Positions 673-27,067 of a stretch of DNA of 30,307 bases are shown here, piece by piece. The stretch lies in the IMG/VR virus record IMGVR_UViG_638341084_000020, one strand, 5' to 3'. Position 1 is the first letter of the stretch. Each line of letters starts with the position of its first letter. The notes below the pieces were generated by a model, which was not told where the DNA came from, made no database searches, and worked only from the letters and a program-made list of their open reading frames with translations. This DNA comes from a virus (lineage: Duplodnaviria; Heunggongvirae; Uroviricota; Caudoviricetes). The translations under genes were made by a program, and so were the position numbers.

Positions 673-3587
673 TATGCAAGCCTCACAATGTAGTTAAATG
701 CGATGTTTTTGACAGTGTTTTCCGCGTTACCAGCAGCGTTAACGGTGATGGTGTGTCCATGTGAGCCAATCGCAACAGAGTGCGTATGAGCACCAATACC
801 GACAGTATGTGCGTGAGCACCTGCAGATGCAGCTGTGCCGCTGACACTATGAGTGTGCGCTCCTGCAGCACTTGTATTCACACTGGCCGCAGACACTACC
901 TTATGTACTGACCCATTTTGTGACCACTGGCTGACTGCTGATGCGCCTGTGACACTATGAGTATGGTTTCCGGCACTTGCGGCTGTACCGCTCACACTGT
1001 GCGTATGCGCCCCGGTGTTATTCGTGGATTTAGTGCCGTAATCAAACGACGATGTGGTTTTCGTCCCCAAATCCGTACTGGATGCACTGGCGCTGTGGGT
1101 GTGCGATTTAATGCCGTCCTGTTCCTGAGACAATACGGCCCGACCACTGGCAGGTTTGCCCTTAATCGTCCAGCCACGCATATCAGGGATCACGCCTGAC
1201 GGATAAGCGGTTGCAAGTTTCGGGTAAGCGGATTTGTCAAAAGTCTGCCCCTGCATCAGGGCATAACCAGACGGAACGGTATCTGATGGCCACGGGATTG
1301 GTGCGCCAGGCGGATAAAACTGCTCTGATGGTGTATAGAGTGAATAAACTGTACCGTCCGTTAACCCTTCCGGCTTATTAGCAGAATATGCTGGTGACGT
1401 ATGAATAGTCACGCTGGCATTACTGGTATAATCCCATTGAATATTTACACCAGTCGCATAATTTCCGATTGCAACGTAAATATCGTAAGTATCACCAGAT
1501 GTATTGACCCAGGCAAAATTTGTAAACCCTGTCGATGTGCGCTGCCATAAAGCACCAGTAATCCCCTTCGGATTACCATTACCTGCACGCAAAACAAGTT
1601 CAGATATACCTGCCTGTTGAGGTGACCCCACGTTAAATCCCGCGCCACCAATCAACGTAATTGAAACAACAGAACTCGCCTGTGGCATGGTTACCGTTGC
1701 TAATTTGAACCAACCAGCACCACCGCTGAATGACATTGTTGTTGAGTTAAGCGTACCAATATCTTTCGGCGTCAGTGTTATATCCGCTGAAAGCGCCTTA
1801 CCATTCACCTTACGGGCAGAAGGTACCCGACCATTCGCATTATCATTAGCTGCTTTCACTGCTTTCGGTGTCGCGGCAAGCGTTTCAGATGCGCTGTTGG
1901 TTGCACTACTGAGCTGGACAATTCCTTTTTGTGCTGTCGTAGCGTCCTGAGCAGTATATTTCCCGTTAGCAAGGTCATAGGCTGCCTTTACCGACTTTGG
2001 CGTTGCCGCCAGCATTTCAGATGTGCTGTTGGTCGCGCTGCTGAGCTGAACTATCCCTTTCTGTGCTGTCGTTGCATCCTGTGCGGTGTATTTCCCGTTA
2101 GCCAGCTCATACGCGGCCTTAACGGCTTTTGGCGTTGCCGCCAGTGACTCGGAAGTGCTGTTAGTCGCACTGCTGAGCTGTACTATCCCCTTTTTCGTCG
2201 TGCTCGCATCCTCAAGCGCCACGGCGGATGCAATATCCTCTGCCCGTTTTGCCGCTGTCTCGGCGCGCGTTGCCGCGGATTCCGCCGTACTTTTGCTCTG
2301 AGCTGCCGCCGTCGCACTGCCAGCTGCCTCTGTCGCCTTCGTGGATGCCGTCGTGGCGCTGCCCTTTGCTGCTGACGCCTGTCTGGTCGCCTCATCTTTT
2401 GAAGCAGACGCAGATGATGCCGATGACGCCGCCGAACTGGCGGACGATGCGGCAGCCGTTTTTGAGGATTCTGCGCTGGTTTCCGACGCTTTCGCGTTCG
2501 TCTCGGATGTCTTCGCTGCGGAAGCAGACCTCGCTGCTGCGCTGGCCTGTTCAGTGGCTTCGCCAGCCTTCGTTGTGGCTGTTGAAGCGGACGATGCGGC
2601 GCTTTCTGCCGATTTTCCGGCAGCGGTGGCACTGGCTGAGGCCTGCCCGGCACTTGTTGACGCGGCACTGGCAGACGACGCAGCCGCTGTTTTTGAGCCT
2701 GCCGCAGCTGAGGCGCTCTGTCCCGCTGCCGTCTCAGAAGACCTGGCGTTCGTCTCGGACGTTTTTGCCGCCTTCGCGGAATTTGCTGCCGCCGTTGCCG
2801 AGGAAGCTGCGCTACTGGCGCTCGAGGATGCGTTCGTTTCTGATGATTTTGCCGCCTCTTTTGAAGCCGACGCATCCCGGGCTGAGGTGGCAGCTTCTGA
2901 CGCTTTCGTGGTCGCGGTGGATGCAGAAGTGGCGGCTGATTGTTGTGACGCTGCAGCATTCGTTTCTGACGTTTTCGCGGCAGCGGCACTGGTAGCTGCC
3001 GCGCTTTTTGAGGACTCTGCAGCGGCAGCACTTTTTTCCGCTTCAGTGGCCTTTGTTGATGCCGTTCCTGCGCTGGAAGACGCTGACTGAGCCGACGAAG
3101 CGGCCTGTCCGGCTGACGTGCTGGCTGCACGTGCTGAATCTGCAGCATCAGTCGCATGGGTTGCCGCCTCACGGGCAGATGTGCCGGCATCACTGGCTGA
3201 CTTCTTCGCGGCTGCCGTGTTCTGTGCCACCACGGACGCGTTACGCGCCACCTCTTCCACCATCTGTTCAAAACGGCGCAGTGCCTCCGGACGGGCATCA
3301 TCCTCCGTCATGGCACCGAGAAAATCATTCAGCGTACCGGGTTGAGAATCTTCATACACGGTGATGGTCCCGGCATGTGACGGCGGGAATCCTTCCACCA
3401 ACAGAATAACGCTGTACTGCCCGTACTCAACGTCCATGCTGTAACGCCCGGCTTCATCCGGATTTTCTGAGGCCAGCGTGTTCACCACCACCGTGGTGCT
3501 GTTACGTTTTGCTTTCAGCTGGATTGTGCAGTTCTGTACCGGTTTTCCTGTGCCGTCTTTCAGTACACCTGAAATCTTTACTGCCAT
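672..3587 (-). CDS. stf: Side tail fibre protein Stf (972 aa from the ATG at 3587; track ORF begins 2 codons earlier at a GTG)
   Basis: N-terminus [26 protein letters not shown] and C-terminus ...[29 protein letters not shown] match lambda Stf as I recall it. Internal Ala/Ser-rich region, 44-aa tandem repeats and a His-rich GAHTHS repeat region near the C-terminus. GGGG-type ribosome-binding site precedes the ATG. Confidence 0.85.
1848..2192 (-). repeat. About 2.6 tandem copies of a 132-bp in-frame coding repeat inside stf (44-aa unit [44 protein letters not shown])
   Basis: Repeat copies begin at Stf track residues 468, 512 and 556 (period 44 aa = 132 bp); the third copy diverges after about 27 residues. 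Visible at DNA level as a near-identical 132-nt periodicity. Confidence 0.85.
2244..3221 (-). repeat. Low-complexity Ala/Ser/Thr-rich coding region of stf with reiterated short motifs ([19 protein letters not shown] and similar)
   Basis: Stf residues about 125-450 consist almost entirely of A, S, T, K, E, Q, G. The GC-rich DNA produces long spurious ORFs on both strands here. Confidence 0.7.
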
Positions 3588-22497: not shown

Positions 22498-22523
<26 letters not shown>

Positions 22524-23043
22524 TCAGCAACCCCGGTATCAGTTCATCCAGCGCGGCTGCTTTGTTCATGGCTTTGATGATATCCCGTTTCAGGAAATCA
22601 ACATGTCGGTTTTCCAGTTCCGGAAAACGCCGCTGCACCGACAGGGGGAGCCCGTCGAGAATACTGGCAATTTCACCTGCGATCCGCGACAACACGAAAG
22701 TACAGAATGCGGTTTCCACCACTTCAGCGGAGTCTCTGGCATTCTTCAGTTCCTGTGCGTCGGCCTGCGCACGCGTAAGTCGATGGCGTTCGTACTCAAT
22801 AGTTCCTGGCTGGAGATCTGCCTCGCTGGCCTGCCGCAGTTCTTCAACCTCCCGGCGCAGCTTTTCGTTCTCAATTTCAGCATCCCTTTCGGCATACCAT
22901 TTTATGACGGCGGCAGAGTCATAAAGCACCTCATTACCCTTGCCACCGCCTCGCAGAACGGGCATTCCCTGTTCCTGCCAGTTCTGAATGGTACGGATAC
23001 TCGCACCGAAAATGTCAGCCAGCTGCTTTTTGTTGACTTCCAT
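22498..23043 (-). CDS. Nu1: Terminase small subunit Nu1, 181 aa
   Basis: MEVNKKQLADIFGASIRTIQNWQEQGMPVLRGGGKGNEVLYDSAAVIKWYAERDAEIENEKLRREVEEL... matches lambda Nu1; overlaps the A start by 26 nt as in lambda. Confidence 0.95.
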
Positions 23044-23059
23044 TGTTCATTCCACGGCC

Positions 23060-23265
23060 AAAAACAGAGAAAGGAAACGACAAAGGCCCAAAAGTTCGTT
23101 TTCAGCACCTGTCGTTTCCTTTCTTTTCAGGGGGTATTTTAAATAAAAACATTAAGTTACGACGAAGAAGAACGGAAACGCCTTAAACCGGAAAATTTTC
23201 ATAAATAGCGAAAACCCGCGAGGTCGCCGCCCCGTAACCTGTCGGATCGCCGGAAAGGACCCGCA
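23060..23265. other. cos: cos site: cosB (three GGAAACG/CGTTTCC R elements at about 23065-23185), cosN 12-nt cohesive end (plus-strand AGGTCGCCGCCC at about 23221..23232) and cosQ side (to about 23265)
   Basis: Reverse complement of the lambda cohesive end GGGCGGCGACCT is read directly, flanked on the Nu1 side by repeated GGAAACG-type elements and on the other side by sequence resembling the lambda right end. Confidence 0.85.
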
Positions 23266-23431
23266 AAATGATAATAATTATCATCTACATGTCACAACGT
23301 GCATCTACGCCATCAAACCACGTCAAATAATCAATTATGACGCAGGTATCGTATTAATTGATCCGCATCAACTTAACGTAAAAACAACTTCAGACAATAC
23401 AAATCAGCGACACTGAATACGGGGCAACCTC

Positions 23432-23626
23432 ATGTCAACGAAGAACAGAACCCGCAGAACAACAACCCGCAACATCCGCTTTCCTAACCAAATGATTGAA
23501 CAAATTAACATCGCTCTTGATCAAAAAGGGTCCGGGAATTTCTCAGCCTGGGTCATTGAAGCCTGCCGTCGGAGGCTAACGTCAGAAAAGAGAGCATATA
23601 CATCAATTAAAAGTGATGAAGAATGA
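23432..23626 (+). CDS. ylcI: Small ribbon-helix-helix-like protein, 64 aa (YlcI-like, DUF3950)
   Basis: MSTKNRTRRTTTRNIRFPNQMIEQINIALDQKGSGNFSAWVIEACRRRL...; basic N-terminus, then a beta-strand / helix / G-x-N turn / helix pattern typical of CopG/Arc/MetJ folds; I recall the 64-aa DLP12 YlcI as similar. Confidence 0.6.
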   Translation: MSTKNRTRRTTTRNIRFPNQMIEQINIALDQKGSGNFSAWVIEACRRRLTSEKRAYTSIKSDEE

Positions 23627-23790
23627 ACATCCCGCGTTCTTCCCTCCGAACAGGACGATATTGTAAATTCACTTAATTACGAGGGCATTGCAGTAATTGA
23701 GTTGCAGTTTTACCACTTTCCTGACAGTGACAGACTGCGTGTTGGCTCTGTCACAGGTTAAGTAGTTTGAATGATTAGCAGTTATGGTGA

Positions 23791-23997
23791 TCAGTCAACC
23801 ACCAGGGAATAATCCTTCATATTATTATCGTGCTTCACCAACGCTGCCTCAATTGCCCTGAATGCTTCCAGAGACACCTTATGTTCTATACATGCAATTA
23901 CAACATCAGGGTAACTCATAGAAATGGTGCTATTAAGCATATTTTTTACACGAATCAGATCCACGGAGGGATCATCAGCAGATTGTTCTTTATTCAT
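23791..23997 (-). CDS. ybcW: Small hypothetical protein, 68 aa (YbcW-like)
   Basis: ATG start with GGAG ribosome-binding site; [41 protein letters not shown]...; same size and position as the 68-aa ORF near the lambda right end and DLP12 ybcW, as recalled. Confidence 0.55.
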
Positions 23998-24282
23998 TTT
24001 GTCGCTCCATGCGCTTGCTCTTCATCTAGCGGTTAAAATATTACTTCAAATCTTTCTGTATGAAGATTTGAGCACGTTGGCCTTACATACATCTGTCGGT
24101 TGTATTTCCCTCCAGAATGCCAGCAGGACCGCACTTTGTTACACAACCAATACTATTAATTGAAAACATTCCTAATATTTGACATAAATCATCAACAAAA
24201 CACAAAGAGGTCAGACCAGATTGAAACGATAAAAACGATAATGCAAACTACGCGCCCTCGTATCACATGGAAGGTTTTACCA

Positions 24283-24693
24283 ATGGCTCAGGTTGCCATT
24301 TTTAAAGAAATATTCGATCAAGTGCGAAAAGATTTAAACTGTGAATTGTTTTATTCTGAACTAAAACGTCACAATGTCTCACATTATATTTACTATCTAG
24401 CCACAGATAATATTCACATTGTGTTAAAAAACGATAACGCTGTGTTAATAAAAGGACTTAAAAAGGTTGTAAATGTTAAATTCTCAAGAAATACGCATCT
24501 TATAGAAACGTCCTTTGATAGGTTGAAATCAAGAGAAATCACATTTCAGCAATACAGGGAAAATCTTGCTAAAGCAGGAGTTTTCCGATGGGTTACAAAT
24601 ATCCACGAACATAAAAGATATTACTATACCTTTGATAATTCATTACTATTTACTGAGAGCATTCAGAACACTACACAAATCTTTCCACGCTAA
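24283..24693 (+). CDS. ybcV: Hypothetical protein, 136 aa (YbcV-like, DUF1398)
   Basis: ATG at 24283 ([30 protein letters not shown]...) preceded by GGAAGG about 8 nt upstream. The track ORF (24160) starts at an upstream TTG; 24241 is another possible ATG. Function unknown. Confidence 0.55.
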
Positions 24694-24983
24694 ATCATAA
24701 CGTCCGGTTTCTTCCGTGTCAGCACCGGGGCGTTGGCATAATGCAATACGTGTACGCGCTAAACCCTGTGTGCATCGTTTTTAATTATTCCCGGACACTC
24801 CCGCAGAGAAGTTCCCCGTCAGGGCTGTGGACATAGTTAATCCGGGAATACAATGACGATTCATCGCACCTGACATACATTAATAAATATTAACAATATG
24901 AAATTTCAACTCATTGTTTAGGGTTTGTTTAATTTTCTACACATACGATTCTGCGAACTTCAAAAAGCATCGGGAATAACACC

Positions 24984-25277
24984 ATGAAAAAAATGCTACT
25001 CGCTACTGCGCTGGCCCTGCTTATTACAGGATGTGCTCAACAGACGTTTACTGTTCAAAACAAACAGACAGCAGTAGCACCAAAGGAAACCATCACCCAT
25101 CATTTCTTCGTTTCTGGAATTGGGCAGAAGAAAACTGTCGATGCAGCCAAAATTTGTGGCGGCGCAGAAAATGTTGTTAAAACAGAAACCCAGCAAACAT
25201 TCGTAAATGGATTGCTCGGTTTTATTACTTTAGGCATTTATACTCCGCTGGAAGCGCGTGTGTATTGCTCAAAATAA
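24984..25277 (+). CDS. bor: Bor lipoprotein (serum-resistance, Iss-like), 97 aa
   Basis: MKKMLLATALALLITGCAQQTFTVQNKQTAVAPKETITHHFFVSGIGQKKTVDAAKICGG..., near-identical to lambda Bor; lipobox LITGC; opposite strand to the late operon, as in lambda. Confidence 0.93.
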   Translation: MKKMLLATALALLITGCAQQTFTVQNKQTAVAPKETITHHFFVSGIGQKKTVDAAKICGGAENVVKTETQQTFVNGLLGFITLGIYTPLEARVYCSK

Positions 25278-25308
25278 TTGCATGAGTTGCCCATCGATAT
25301 GGTCAGCT

Positions 25309-25782
25309 CTATCTGCACTGCTCATTAATATACTTCTGGGTTCCTTCCAGTTGTTTTTGCATAGTGATCAGCCTCTCTCTGAGGGTGAAATAATCCCGTT
25401 CAGCGGTGTCTGCCAGTCGGGGGGAGGCTGCATTATCCACGCCGGAGGCCGTGGTGGCTTCACGCACTGACTGACAGACTGCTTTGATGTGCAACCGACG
25501 ACGACCAGCGGCAACATCATCACGCAGAGCATCATTTTCAGCTTTCGCATCAGCTAACTCCTTCGTGTATTTTGCATCGAGCGCAGCAACATCACGCTGA
25601 CGCATCTGCATGTCAGTAATTGCCGCGTTCGCTAGCTTCAGTTCTCTGGCATTTTTGTCGCGCTGGGCTTTGTAGGCGATTGCGTTATCACGGTAATGAT
25701 TGACCGCCCATGACAGGCTGACGATGATGCAGATAATCAGAGCGGATATAATCGCGGTTACTCTGCTCACTGTTGCCCCCAC
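25309..25782 (-). CDS. Rz: Spanin inner-membrane subunit Rz (i-spanin), 157 aa
   Basis: ...[59 protein letters not shown]... matches lambda Rz / DLP12 RzpD; N-terminal transmembrane segment plus coiled-coil region. Confidence 0.9.
25368..25550 (-). CDS. Rz1: Spanin outer-membrane lipoprotein subunit Rz1 (o-spanin), 60 aa, embedded in Rz in the +1 frame
   Basis: [60 protein letters not shown]; lipobox LVVVGC and proline-rich mature region, as in lambda Rz1. Confidence 0.88.
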
Positions 25783-26264
25783 AAACAGACTTCACGCTCA
25801 ATCTCACGACGAGTCATCAGGCCTTTCCATTGCTTACCGCCAGCGTATGTCCAGCGACGCAGCTGATCACATGCGCCTTTGATATCGCCCTGGTTTATTT
25901 TGCGAAGAAGCGTCGATGTTCTAAAATTGCCAGCACCCACATTGTAAACGAATGAGTAAAGAGCGCCGCGCGTTGTTTCCGGTATATCGACTTTGATATA
26001 CGGGTTAATTTGTCTGGCGACAGTGGCAAGGTCTTTATTCAAGAGTGCTTTGCATTCTGCTTTGGTATACGTTTTACCGAGCATGATGTCTTTTCCGGTG
26101 TGTCCGTGACATACAGTCCATACACCAACAATATCTTTGTATGGTATGTAGCTGACACCTTCCAGACCATCGTTACCACTTGGGCCAGTGATTAACACTG
26201 ATGCTATAGCAATTGCTCCGCCACCAATAGCAGCAGCAACGGCTTTTCGTAATGATGGAGGCAT
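25767..26264 (-). CDS. R: SAR endolysin R (phage-21-type T4-lysozyme-fold muramidase with N-terminal signal-anchor-release domain), 165 aa
   Basis: Gly/Ala-rich weakly hydrophobic N-terminal segment ([18 protein letters not shown]) followed by E35...D44...T50 spacing ([18 protein letters not shown]), the catalytic triad arrangement I recall for R21. Not the lambda transglycosylase R. Confidence 0.88.
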
Positions 26265-26479
26265 TATTCACCTCTCGCAGCCTTGCGCTTATCTTCTTTA
26301 ATCTTGAAATAAAGGTTTGTCAGGTACGTCAGCAGGCCAAATACCAGGCTACCCAGCACACCTATTGCTGCCCACTGTGAGGGAGTGACTTTATCGAGCA
26401 GCTGTAAAAACCAGTAACCGGCACTACCTGCTGAGGTGCCATAGGCGACTCCAGTTGTTAACTTATCCATGAATTTCAT
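26264..26479 (-). CDS. S: Pinholin / antiholin S (phage-21 S21 type), 71 aa with dual start (Met1 antiholin, Met4 holin)
   Basis: [71 protein letters not shown]; two transmembrane segments and a charged C-terminus; M-K-x-M dual-start motif. Track ORF extends 15 codons upstream. Confidence 0.85.
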
Positions 26480-27067
26480 AACCCCACCTCGCAGACAAAG
26501 CGGGTGTAAATTGAGGGAATACAACGTATCGCAAAAAAGCAGAAACGTAACTGACTCCGAGTCAGTGAATAACTCAGGTATTGAGTTATCAGCTAATATC
26601 GAGACTCAAAAAATGGAAAAACCAGCTCGACGGCGGGTTTAAGCTGTGTGACGAAGTAACCACTCTTAACAGCATAACCAATTTTTTACGTACGTAAACC
26701 ACTGAATGATATTTATGAGAATGCTACCGAGTGTTCAAAACATCACAACAAATACATAAGAAAACCTCAACAAATAACCAATAAATAATTTCCAGTGTTA
26801 TTTTTAGCCGGTTTAAATTAAACAGACGAATTATAGAACCACCATAAATAACAGCCATTAATATAAATTAGCTAATAGATTTATTTTTGTTCAAATAAGA
26901 GCCATAAATAGGTTTCGATAGAAAAAGTTCAGATAAAAATAGAGATCTACTTCACAAATTAAATGAGAAACTAAAACTTACATCTTGAAATAATCACATT
27001 GATTAGATGAATATTTATCGCGCAGTGACATCATTTTTTAATAATAGTTCAAAAAAAAGGGCTCACG

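Follow-up and report, generated by a model that had tools for sequence, protein, structure and literature searches.

The nearest described counterparts of the small phage protein discussed here are Arc and Mnt of phage P22, which are encoded in immI and control ant; Arc contacts DNA bases through residues Q9, N11 and R13. For the relatives of this protein in phage satellites, comparable arrangements are those of phage immunity regions and of stl-str in Staphylococcus aureus pathogenicity islands (SaPIs), and the genes beside it are best compared with bor and lom, lambda morons that serve lysogenic conversion and bring signals of their own into the late region. The locus in question lies on a stretch of 30,307 nt (IMG/VR virus record IMGVR_UViG_638341084_000020; "the window" means this whole stretch), which is a lambdoid prophage read in the sense opposite to the standard lambda map. 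Between cos and bor it holds exactly three open reading frames (ORFs), the same three that an earlier note on this DNA had picked out, and their positions and orientations are as that note gave them. In the ORF list they are:

23432-23626, plus strand: ylcI homologue, 64 aa
23791-23997, minus strand: ybcW homologue (lambda p79), 68 aa
24283-24693, plus strand: ybcV homologue (lambda p78), 136 aa

Taken as a whole, the locus is best explained, in our opinion, by an Arc/Mnt-like regulator of the ribbon-helix-helix (RHH) type encoded by ylcI and a moron-type pair, ybcW and ybcV, all of them being independent accessory genes; this is an explanation towards which we lean, with some reserve.

All three ORFs are real genes, and they are not new ones but the already named, ubiquitous lambdoid y-genes ylcI, ybcW and ybcV. 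The 2.2 kb around the block shows 98.5% DNA identity to lambda 46436-48502 and 100% to a prophage in E. coli FDAARGOS_1059, where PGAP names the genes ylcI, ybcW, ybcV and bor, and DLP12 of K-12 has the same order (borD, ybcV, ybcW, ylcI, nohD). Of 5426 complete E. coli genomes, 5114 carry the region at least in part. The statement in the earlier note that the block is conserved in lambda and in DLP12 is borne out by these comparisons, and it is also true that none of the three genes has an established function. To call them uncharacterised, as that note did, is nevertheless an overstatement, because they belong to named families (YlcI/YnfO or DUF3950, YbcW, and DUF1398), an 80%-identical homologue of YbcV has a nuclear magnetic resonance (NMR) structure, 2HH8, and a PdhR site has been published (PMC7660256). 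Could one or more of the ORFs still not be genes? RefSeq lambda, which annotates p78 and p79, leaves the 64-aa ORF, complement(48109..48303), unannotated, and the predicted model of YbcW is of low confidence; but all three ORFs have family matches, codon-position bias and a ratio of non-synonymous to synonymous substitution rates (dN/dS) well below 1, and PGAP annotates all of them, so that we regard this as extremely improbable. Shine-Dalgarno-like sequences stand 7 nt 5' of the ybcW start (GGAG) and 8 nt 5' of the ybcV start (GGAAGG), and a weaker one (GGGG) 7 nt 5' of that of ylcI.

Searches of protein databases return hundreds of near-identical matches on contigs of about 3.5 kb, and also matches labelled Staphylococcus aureus, Veillonella, Dovyalis caffra and "Campylobacter phage CJLB-4" (phage record MW057783.1). 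All of these evidently come from lambda, probably from DNA of its right end that served as a control in sequencing, and they inflate the apparent family size and host range.

YlcI is a member of Pfam PF13132 (DUF3950; 71.4 bits against a cutoff of 25) and of NCBIfam NF041551 (YlcI/YnfO; 36.6 bits against a threshold of 30), matches phrog_949, and differs from K-12 YlcI in one residue. YlcI of DLP12 and YnfO of Qin occupy the same place beside a Nu1 homologue, in the same orientation and with no material difference; the family is without an assigned function or fold in the libraries searched. Comparison of codons 1-50 with the copy of an Stx2a phage (dS 0.90, dN 0.054, dN/dS 0.06) reveals strong purifying selection. 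The C-terminal tail is replaced outright in other lineages, and the tail type varies with the downstream neighbour.

What fold does this protein have? The earlier note had seen in it the pattern of RHH proteins such as CopG, Arc and MetJ. An AlphaFold2 (AF2) monomer model, made with ColabFold on 77 family members from many Enterobacterales, has a predicted local distance difference test score (pLDDT) of 77.5 overall and of 83-89 over residues 11-50, and consists of an extended segment before residue 19, a helix (19-32), a loop (33-36) and a second helix (37-62), the four-residue loop carrying an invariant N-F-S. DSSP assigns no strand to it, as expected of a monomer model. The order of elements in the RHH superfamily, a short strand-like segment, a helix, a tight loop and a helix within about 45 residues, is found in this model. 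Foldseek gave no significant match of the model in the PDB (best E 0.47), and the top list, statistically weak as it is, consists nearly entirely of RHH proteins: NikR, Arc, ParD, MazE9, HicB, MatP, NikA and the ParB of pCXC100. When the family was aligned by hhalign with reference sequences (Arc, Arc plus Mnt, NikR and CopG), YlcI residues 12-30 fell on Arc 9-27 with N-I-R-F-P over N-L-R-W-P (E=0.012, but a probability of 3.6%), and NikR and CopG took the same register as Arc without significance. In the family alignment, the invariant columns R16, F17, F37, S38, W40, V41 and C45 fit a pattern of strand, core and helix cap. One DUF3950 member matches RHH_6 weakly (E=0.092); a Pfam scan of the 77 members at a lax threshold gave no recurrent RHH family but only scattered weak matches. 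A direct sequence search of the PDB with YlcI found nothing, and the sole match in a PDB profile search with the family was the fused terminase helix-turn-helix (HTH) described below. The proposed fold has held up in quality, in the order of elements, the Arc register and the strong purifying selection on the first 50 codons, and not in statistics. With structural and profile matches that are consistent but statistically weak, RHH is the best available reading of the 64-aa protein, and we consider the fold itself, as modelled, quite probable.

The resemblance to Arc and Mnt includes a similar size, a basic N-terminal arm and the shared order of helix, Gly/Ser loop and helix, and N14 and R16 of YlcI stand on Arc positions N11 and R13; this likeness stays below significance, and ylcI, in contrast to the P22 genes, adjoins cos and has no known target. 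If YlcI folds in this way, its dimer would contain a two-stranded ribbon, made by pairing of the strands at about residues 12-18 (T-R-N-I-R-F-P), for recognition of the major groove, T12, N14 and R16 being the DNA-contacting residues by alignment to Q9, N11 and R13 of Arc, and the Arg/Thr-rich N-terminal arm would assist.

The part of this analysis that goes beyond routine annotation is the satellite context of the DUF3950 family; the genes as such are ordinary and known. With 141 representatives in 1.84 billion clusters, it is a small family, and its hosts are Enterobacterales, plus one match labelled Pasteurella multocida. Six of eight diverse members examined lie in satellites in which int is succeeded by alpA and then by a primase or primase-helicase gene, in many cases with capsid genes after it, and a survey also lists YlcI/YnfO in capsid-forming phage-inducible chromosomal islands (cf-PICIs) of Enterobacter (PMC13612085). 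In these satellites the DUF3950 gene is the sole opposite-strand gene between alpA and the primase operon and diverges from the replication operon. Three GTG-N6-CAC boxes stand about 100, 77 and 30 bp 5' of its start codon. Counted in the 200 bp 5' of each DUF3950 gene (loci L013-L019, L001 and L002; for example, L015 4916-4983), they occur at 16.7 per kb, compared with 0.11 per kb in the remainder of the loci, an enrichment of about 156-fold. The central hexamer of the boxes is specific to each element, and directly beside the middle box there is a conserved CGTCAA; seen on the strand that encodes the divergent replication operon, it is TTGACG and resembles a -35 hexamer.

The strongest argument that DUF3950 proteins may be sequence-specific transcriptional regulators comes, as we infer it, from a cassette swap. 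Two satellites whose flanks are 87-97% identical differ by a clean exchange (L015 4893-5196 against L022 4803-5031). On the L015 side the exchanged segment comprises exactly the boxes and the DUF3950 coding sequence; on the L022 side there are other palindromes (CAATGTAGTACATTG; TTGTCAAC...GTTGACAA) and a gene for a 57-aa CopG-like protein, whose sole Pfam match is CopG-type RHH_1 over the full model length with a weak E=0.05. AlpA has an equal Pfam score in both satellites. This looks like the pattern expected of an exchange of an operator together with its binding protein, as in immunity cassettes. In two further satellites (L001 4714-5103 and L002 5717-6100), this regulatory position, with alpA on one side and the primase gene on the other, is taken by proteins of 127-129 aa in which DUF3950 is fused to the N-terminal HTH of a Terminase_2 small subunit. 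As in phage immunity regions and SaPI stl-str, the satellite DUF3950 gene diverges from a replication operon by a triple operator-like array, and gene and array are exchanged as a unit; they are a putative cassette of this kind. The ylcI of lambda-type phages differs in that it lies in the late region, not in an immunity region, and lacks the array. Two other systems were compared with the family: Rpp, the packaging-redirection protein of phage-inducible chromosomal islands (PICIs), was rejected as a DUF3950 relative because it is a winged-HTH protein, and the packaging-inhibition system of Listeria TerI was checked and is unrelated.

PICI and cf-PICI satellites are generally described as controlled by AlpA only. 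It might be attractive to join the two contexts, so that DUF3950 proteins would be element-specific RHH repressors of enterobacterial PICI and cf-PICI satellites, their operators being the triple GTG-N6-CAC arrays, placed over the promoter of the divergent replication operon, and lambdoid helpers would keep a paralogue antisense and just before their packaging genes. There the paralogue would block stray transcription into the terminase operon in the lysogen, or would cross-talk with satellite regulation. As one joint claim, this appears to us doubtful.

How can the satellite arrangement help to understand ylcI in a lambda-type phage? Terminase A, Nu1 and the lysis genes are all on the minus strand, which is the direction of the late operon, and ylcI on the plus strand is directed away from cos and against it, just as the earlier note had observed. 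This place of ylcI, antisense to the late operon and just before the packaging genes, is constant across terminase types. By analogy with the satellites, YlcI should regulate promoters beside its own gene, and we suppose that it would be a sequence-specific transcriptional regulator, probably a repressor, of such promoters. Our best guess at the target in lambda would be the conserved stretch of about 120 bp 5' of ylcI, which faces cos and Nu1:

23311-23431: conserved non-coding stretch 5' of ylcI, a speculative candidate promoter/operator, chosen from an inverted repeat and the Qin comparison

The inverted repeat, ATCAATTATGACG/CGTATTAATTGAT, lies at 23330-23362, and the 121 bp 5' of ylcI have 1 difference from Qin as against about 10 in the 78 cos-proximal bases; the repeat and the low divergence are suggestive only. 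Overlapping transcripts of ybcW and ylcI, listed as a convergent pair, were seen in at least half of the RNA-seq samples of K-12 (PMC12288877), and ylcI is thus transcribed from a cryptic prophage. As a separate observation, the 9-mers AAATAATCA and GTATTAATT flank the inverted repeat 5' of lambda-type ylcI (window 23326-23359) and recur 8 bp apart, in swapped order, 3' of Stx2a-type ylcI (L006, about 3275-3310); their count is within chance for AT-rich DNA, though the clustering is odd.

The constant position can also be read in another way, namely that YlcI is an accessory factor of packaging, bound close to cos and with an influence on terminase binding, on cos cleavage or on termination. 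The gene does adjoin packaging genes whose terminases are unrelated (Nu1/A in the lambda type, HNH-Terminase_2-TerL in the Stx2a type), and DUF3950 is fused to the Terminase_2 HTH in some elements. However, a gene antisense to the terminase late transcript should be poorly expressed during packaging, most DUF3950 members lie in satellites beside replication genes, far from any terminase gene or cos, an HNH gene stands between ylcI and the terminase genes in the Stx2a-type phages, and the region is reported to be dispensable for lytic growth (PMC10695390). A packaging role is for these reasons quite unlikely, and a transcriptional regulator remains the reading of YlcI that we prefer.

The earlier note had further suggested that the three genes form a small regulatory or accessory module. 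Comparison of related phages does not sustain this idea, since each of the genes is found without the others. Phage 434 has ylcI directly followed by bor, without ybcW and ybcV; in PhiR63_1, ylcI (not annotated there) and ybcW are present, and gnsB/ynfN/csp genes replace ybcV; ybcW is the only one of the three in HannyBb; in Qin and ev099, a DUF1398 gene (ydfO) comes 57 bp after ynfO on the same strand, and ybcW is absent; and in Stx2a-type phages, as well as in an E. coli prophage remnant with HNH-Terminase_2-TerL packaging genes, ylcI stands alone, divergent from HNH. The block is therefore three non-essential accessory genes that assort independently in a variable slot between the lysis cassette or bor and the packaging genes. 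That the three would act as one unit, for instance with YlcI controlling ybcW and ybcV, could be argued from their adjacency in lambda, DLP12 and this element and from the convergent overlap of the ybcW and ylcI transcripts, but besides the separate occurrences, ybcW is far rarer (40 phage records) than ylcI, and the control region of ybcW and ybcV already has host regulators assigned to it; such joint action is accordingly improbable to a high degree.

The arrangement in Qin and ev099, where the DUF1398 gene follows the DUF3950 gene so closely on the same strand, may remind one of a type II toxin-antitoxin pair, in which YlcI/YnfO would be an RHH antitoxin and autorepressor whose tail neutralises the downstream protein. 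The tail is indeed the variable part of YlcI and changes with the downstream neighbour, and many of the RHH fold matches of YlcI are antitoxins. Obligate adjacency, though, is not what is found: phage 434, PhiR63_1, the Stx2a phages and all of the satellites have ylcI but no DUF1398 gene, and in the window the opposite-strand ybcW comes between ylcI and ybcV, which has its own PdhR-linked control region. Neither the recovery of a ybcV ASKA clone with a glycogen phenotype nor the oxidative-stress resistance ascribed to YdfO overexpression suggests a toxin, and PADLOC gave no significant, credible defence-system match. We thus think a toxin-antitoxin pair very unlikely, and keep to independent accessory genes.

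In contrast to ylcI, ybcW and ybcV have a control region that can be described in some detail. They are divergent, as the earlier note had stated, and 285 bp separate them; from 23750 to 24800 the GC content is 30-39%, compared with 51-55% in the flanking Nu1/A and Rz regions. Two features accompany the pair:

24205-24221, minus strand: PdhR box ATCTGGTCTGACCTCTT, 17 bp, in the divergent promoter region of ybcW and ybcV; an exact match to the site reported for DLP12 by genomic systematic evolution of ligands by exponential enrichment (gSELEX)
24750-24785, plus strand: terminator-like hairpin and T-run 3' of ybcV, from a pattern scan only

None of 100 shuffled sequences gave a match to the PdhR box. 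In DLP12, the ybcV/ybcW intergenic region has a PdhR site, and the mRNAs of ybcV and ybcW were down 10.0- and 8.9-fold, respectively, in a pdhR mutant (PMC7660256). Hha binds and induces ybcW (PMC2408971), and MotB of phage T4 raises ybcV and ybcW more than 1000-fold, an effect reported in a paper that links MotB to altered H-NS-dependent repression (PMC7827196). The hairpin and T-run fit a self-contained transcription unit. We read ybcW and ybcV as a divergent, AT-rich pair of the moron type with its own control region, which in DLP12 is bound by PdhR, the pyruvate sensor of the host, and is subject to Hha/H-NS. Their expression from the prophage would therefore follow the physiology of the host, as with bor next to them. 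They resemble bor and lom in AT-rich composition and dispensability, probably also in a control region and terminator-like site of their own and, by the data on DLP12 and Qin, in expression from cryptic prophages, and they adjoin bor; they differ in that no phenotype comparable to the serum resistance given by Bor is known for them, and in that ybcW is co-oriented with the late operon, so that it should also be made late.

The YbcW protein is acidic and, over its 68 aa, 100% identical to lambda p79 and to YbcW of DLP12. It matches phrog_657 (E=7.5e-48, residues 1-68) and no Pfam family. The gene is much rarer than ylcI, as tblastn finds it in only 40 phage records, mostly lambda itself; in comparison with the copies of PhiR63_1 and HannyBb (80% identical) its dN/dS is 0.41-0.44, and every change lies within the first 22 residues. 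AF2 gives a low-confidence model of three helices (pLDDT 64), the homologue input consisting of near-identical noisy copies only; a fold search with this model found no match, and a PDB sequence search with YbcW found nothing.

YbcV belongs to Pfam PF07166 (DUF1398; 156.1 bits against a threshold of 22) and matches YdfO, PDB 2HH8, along its whole length (E=4e-71, residues 1-136, about 80% identity), the dN/dS between ybcV and ydfO of Qin being 0.21. That structure comes without an attached function. A TTG at 24160 would lengthen ybcV to 177 aa, and RefSeq lambda uses it for p78 under the label "head protein", while PGAP and K-12 use the start of the 136-aa form. The longer form is unlikely, because the ATG is where both the Pfam domain and the match to 2HH8 start, GGAAGG stands 5' of it, and the PdhR box would fall inside the extension. 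Probably, the 177-aa start and the name "head protein" are a start-site and naming error that has spread to phage annotations and to PHROG 413; the phage records seen that label YbcV "head protein" or "putative envelope protein" hold no evidence for either. Weak hints to function are the recovery of the ybcV ASKA overexpression clone with its glycogen phenotype and the citation of YdfO overexpression as raising oxidative-stress resistance.

In a CRISPR interference (CRISPRi) study of lambda, p78 was dispensable and p79 was scored essential, and the table of the same study gives both as non-essential in earlier literature (PMC10695390). As the late transcript reaches p79 before Nu1, its score probably reflects a polar block of this transcript before Nu1/A. 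A different significance of ybcW would be that the lambda p79 protein matters mainly as something sensed by a bacterial NADase defence (NIR/DUF4062) rather than through a function in the lysogen. A lead in this direction is given by the word counts of a preprint (bioRxiv 10.64898/2026.09.04.749371), the part of it that was available to us, in which "lambdap79" occurs six times and "escape", "trigger", "expression of lambdap79" and "lambdap79 gene" are found as well. A related DUF4062 preprint, on the other hand, names the phage portal as activator, and being sensed would not explain why a phage keeps ybcW. We hold this idea to be unlikely, and continue to regard ybcW as one half of a moron-type pair.

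Several results weigh against the explanation that we favour as a whole. No RHH or Arc model of Pfam matches YlcI itself, and the AF2 model is a monomer, so that the intermolecular ribbon which defines the fold is not visible in it. Judging by the cassette swap, the satellite protein would bind the boxes. Near lambda-type ylcI there are no GTG-N6-CAC boxes, which is consistent with the presence of N14 in lambda-type proteins as against G14 in those of satellites, and lambda-type and Stx2a-type ylcI contexts share no operator candidate despite their near-identical protein cores, the shared 9-11-mers being no more numerous than in shuffles. Promoter scans of the region gave sites no more numerous than in shuffled sequence. 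The expression data on the three genes, finally, all come from the literature on DLP12 and Qin, not from this element.

The surroundings of the block in the window are as follows:

22498-23043, minus strand: Nu1
23221-23232, minus strand: cos cohesive-end sequence AGGTCGCCGCCC (cosN), read from the sequence
23256-23262, minus strand: cosQ, read from the sequence, its position agreeing with the annotation of phage 434
24984-25277, plus strand: bor
25309-25782, minus strand: Rz, a lysis gene
25767-26264, minus strand: endolysin of the signal-arrest-release (SAR) type, as in P21 and DLP12, a lysis gene

The lysis cassette at 25309-26524 is of the P21/DLP12 type, with the SAR endolysin RrrD and an EssD-like holin in place of lambda S/R, and the element is therefore a mosaic of lambda and DLP12 types, not lambda itself. 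A sigma-70-like site on the minus strand at 23268-23295 (10/12; GTGACA, a spacer of 16 nt, and TATCAT) overlaps the palindrome ATGATAATAATTATCAT just outside cosQ and is directed into cos and Nu1; it may be due to chance. An Rfam search of 22800-25500 found no RNA family.

What does all this mean for the phages and their satellites? No biochemical function of ybcW and ybcV follows from the data at hand, and their link to PdhR, the host's sensor of pyruvate, suggests that the prophage reads host metabolism. Lambda complement(48109..48303), one of the last unannotated ORFs of lambda, gains a plausible fold and role as the gene of a small RHH DNA-binding regulator. If YlcI-type proteins are repressors of satellites, they would be a missing control element for models of how PICIs stay silent, and one may then ask why a paralogue stands beside cos in helper phages.

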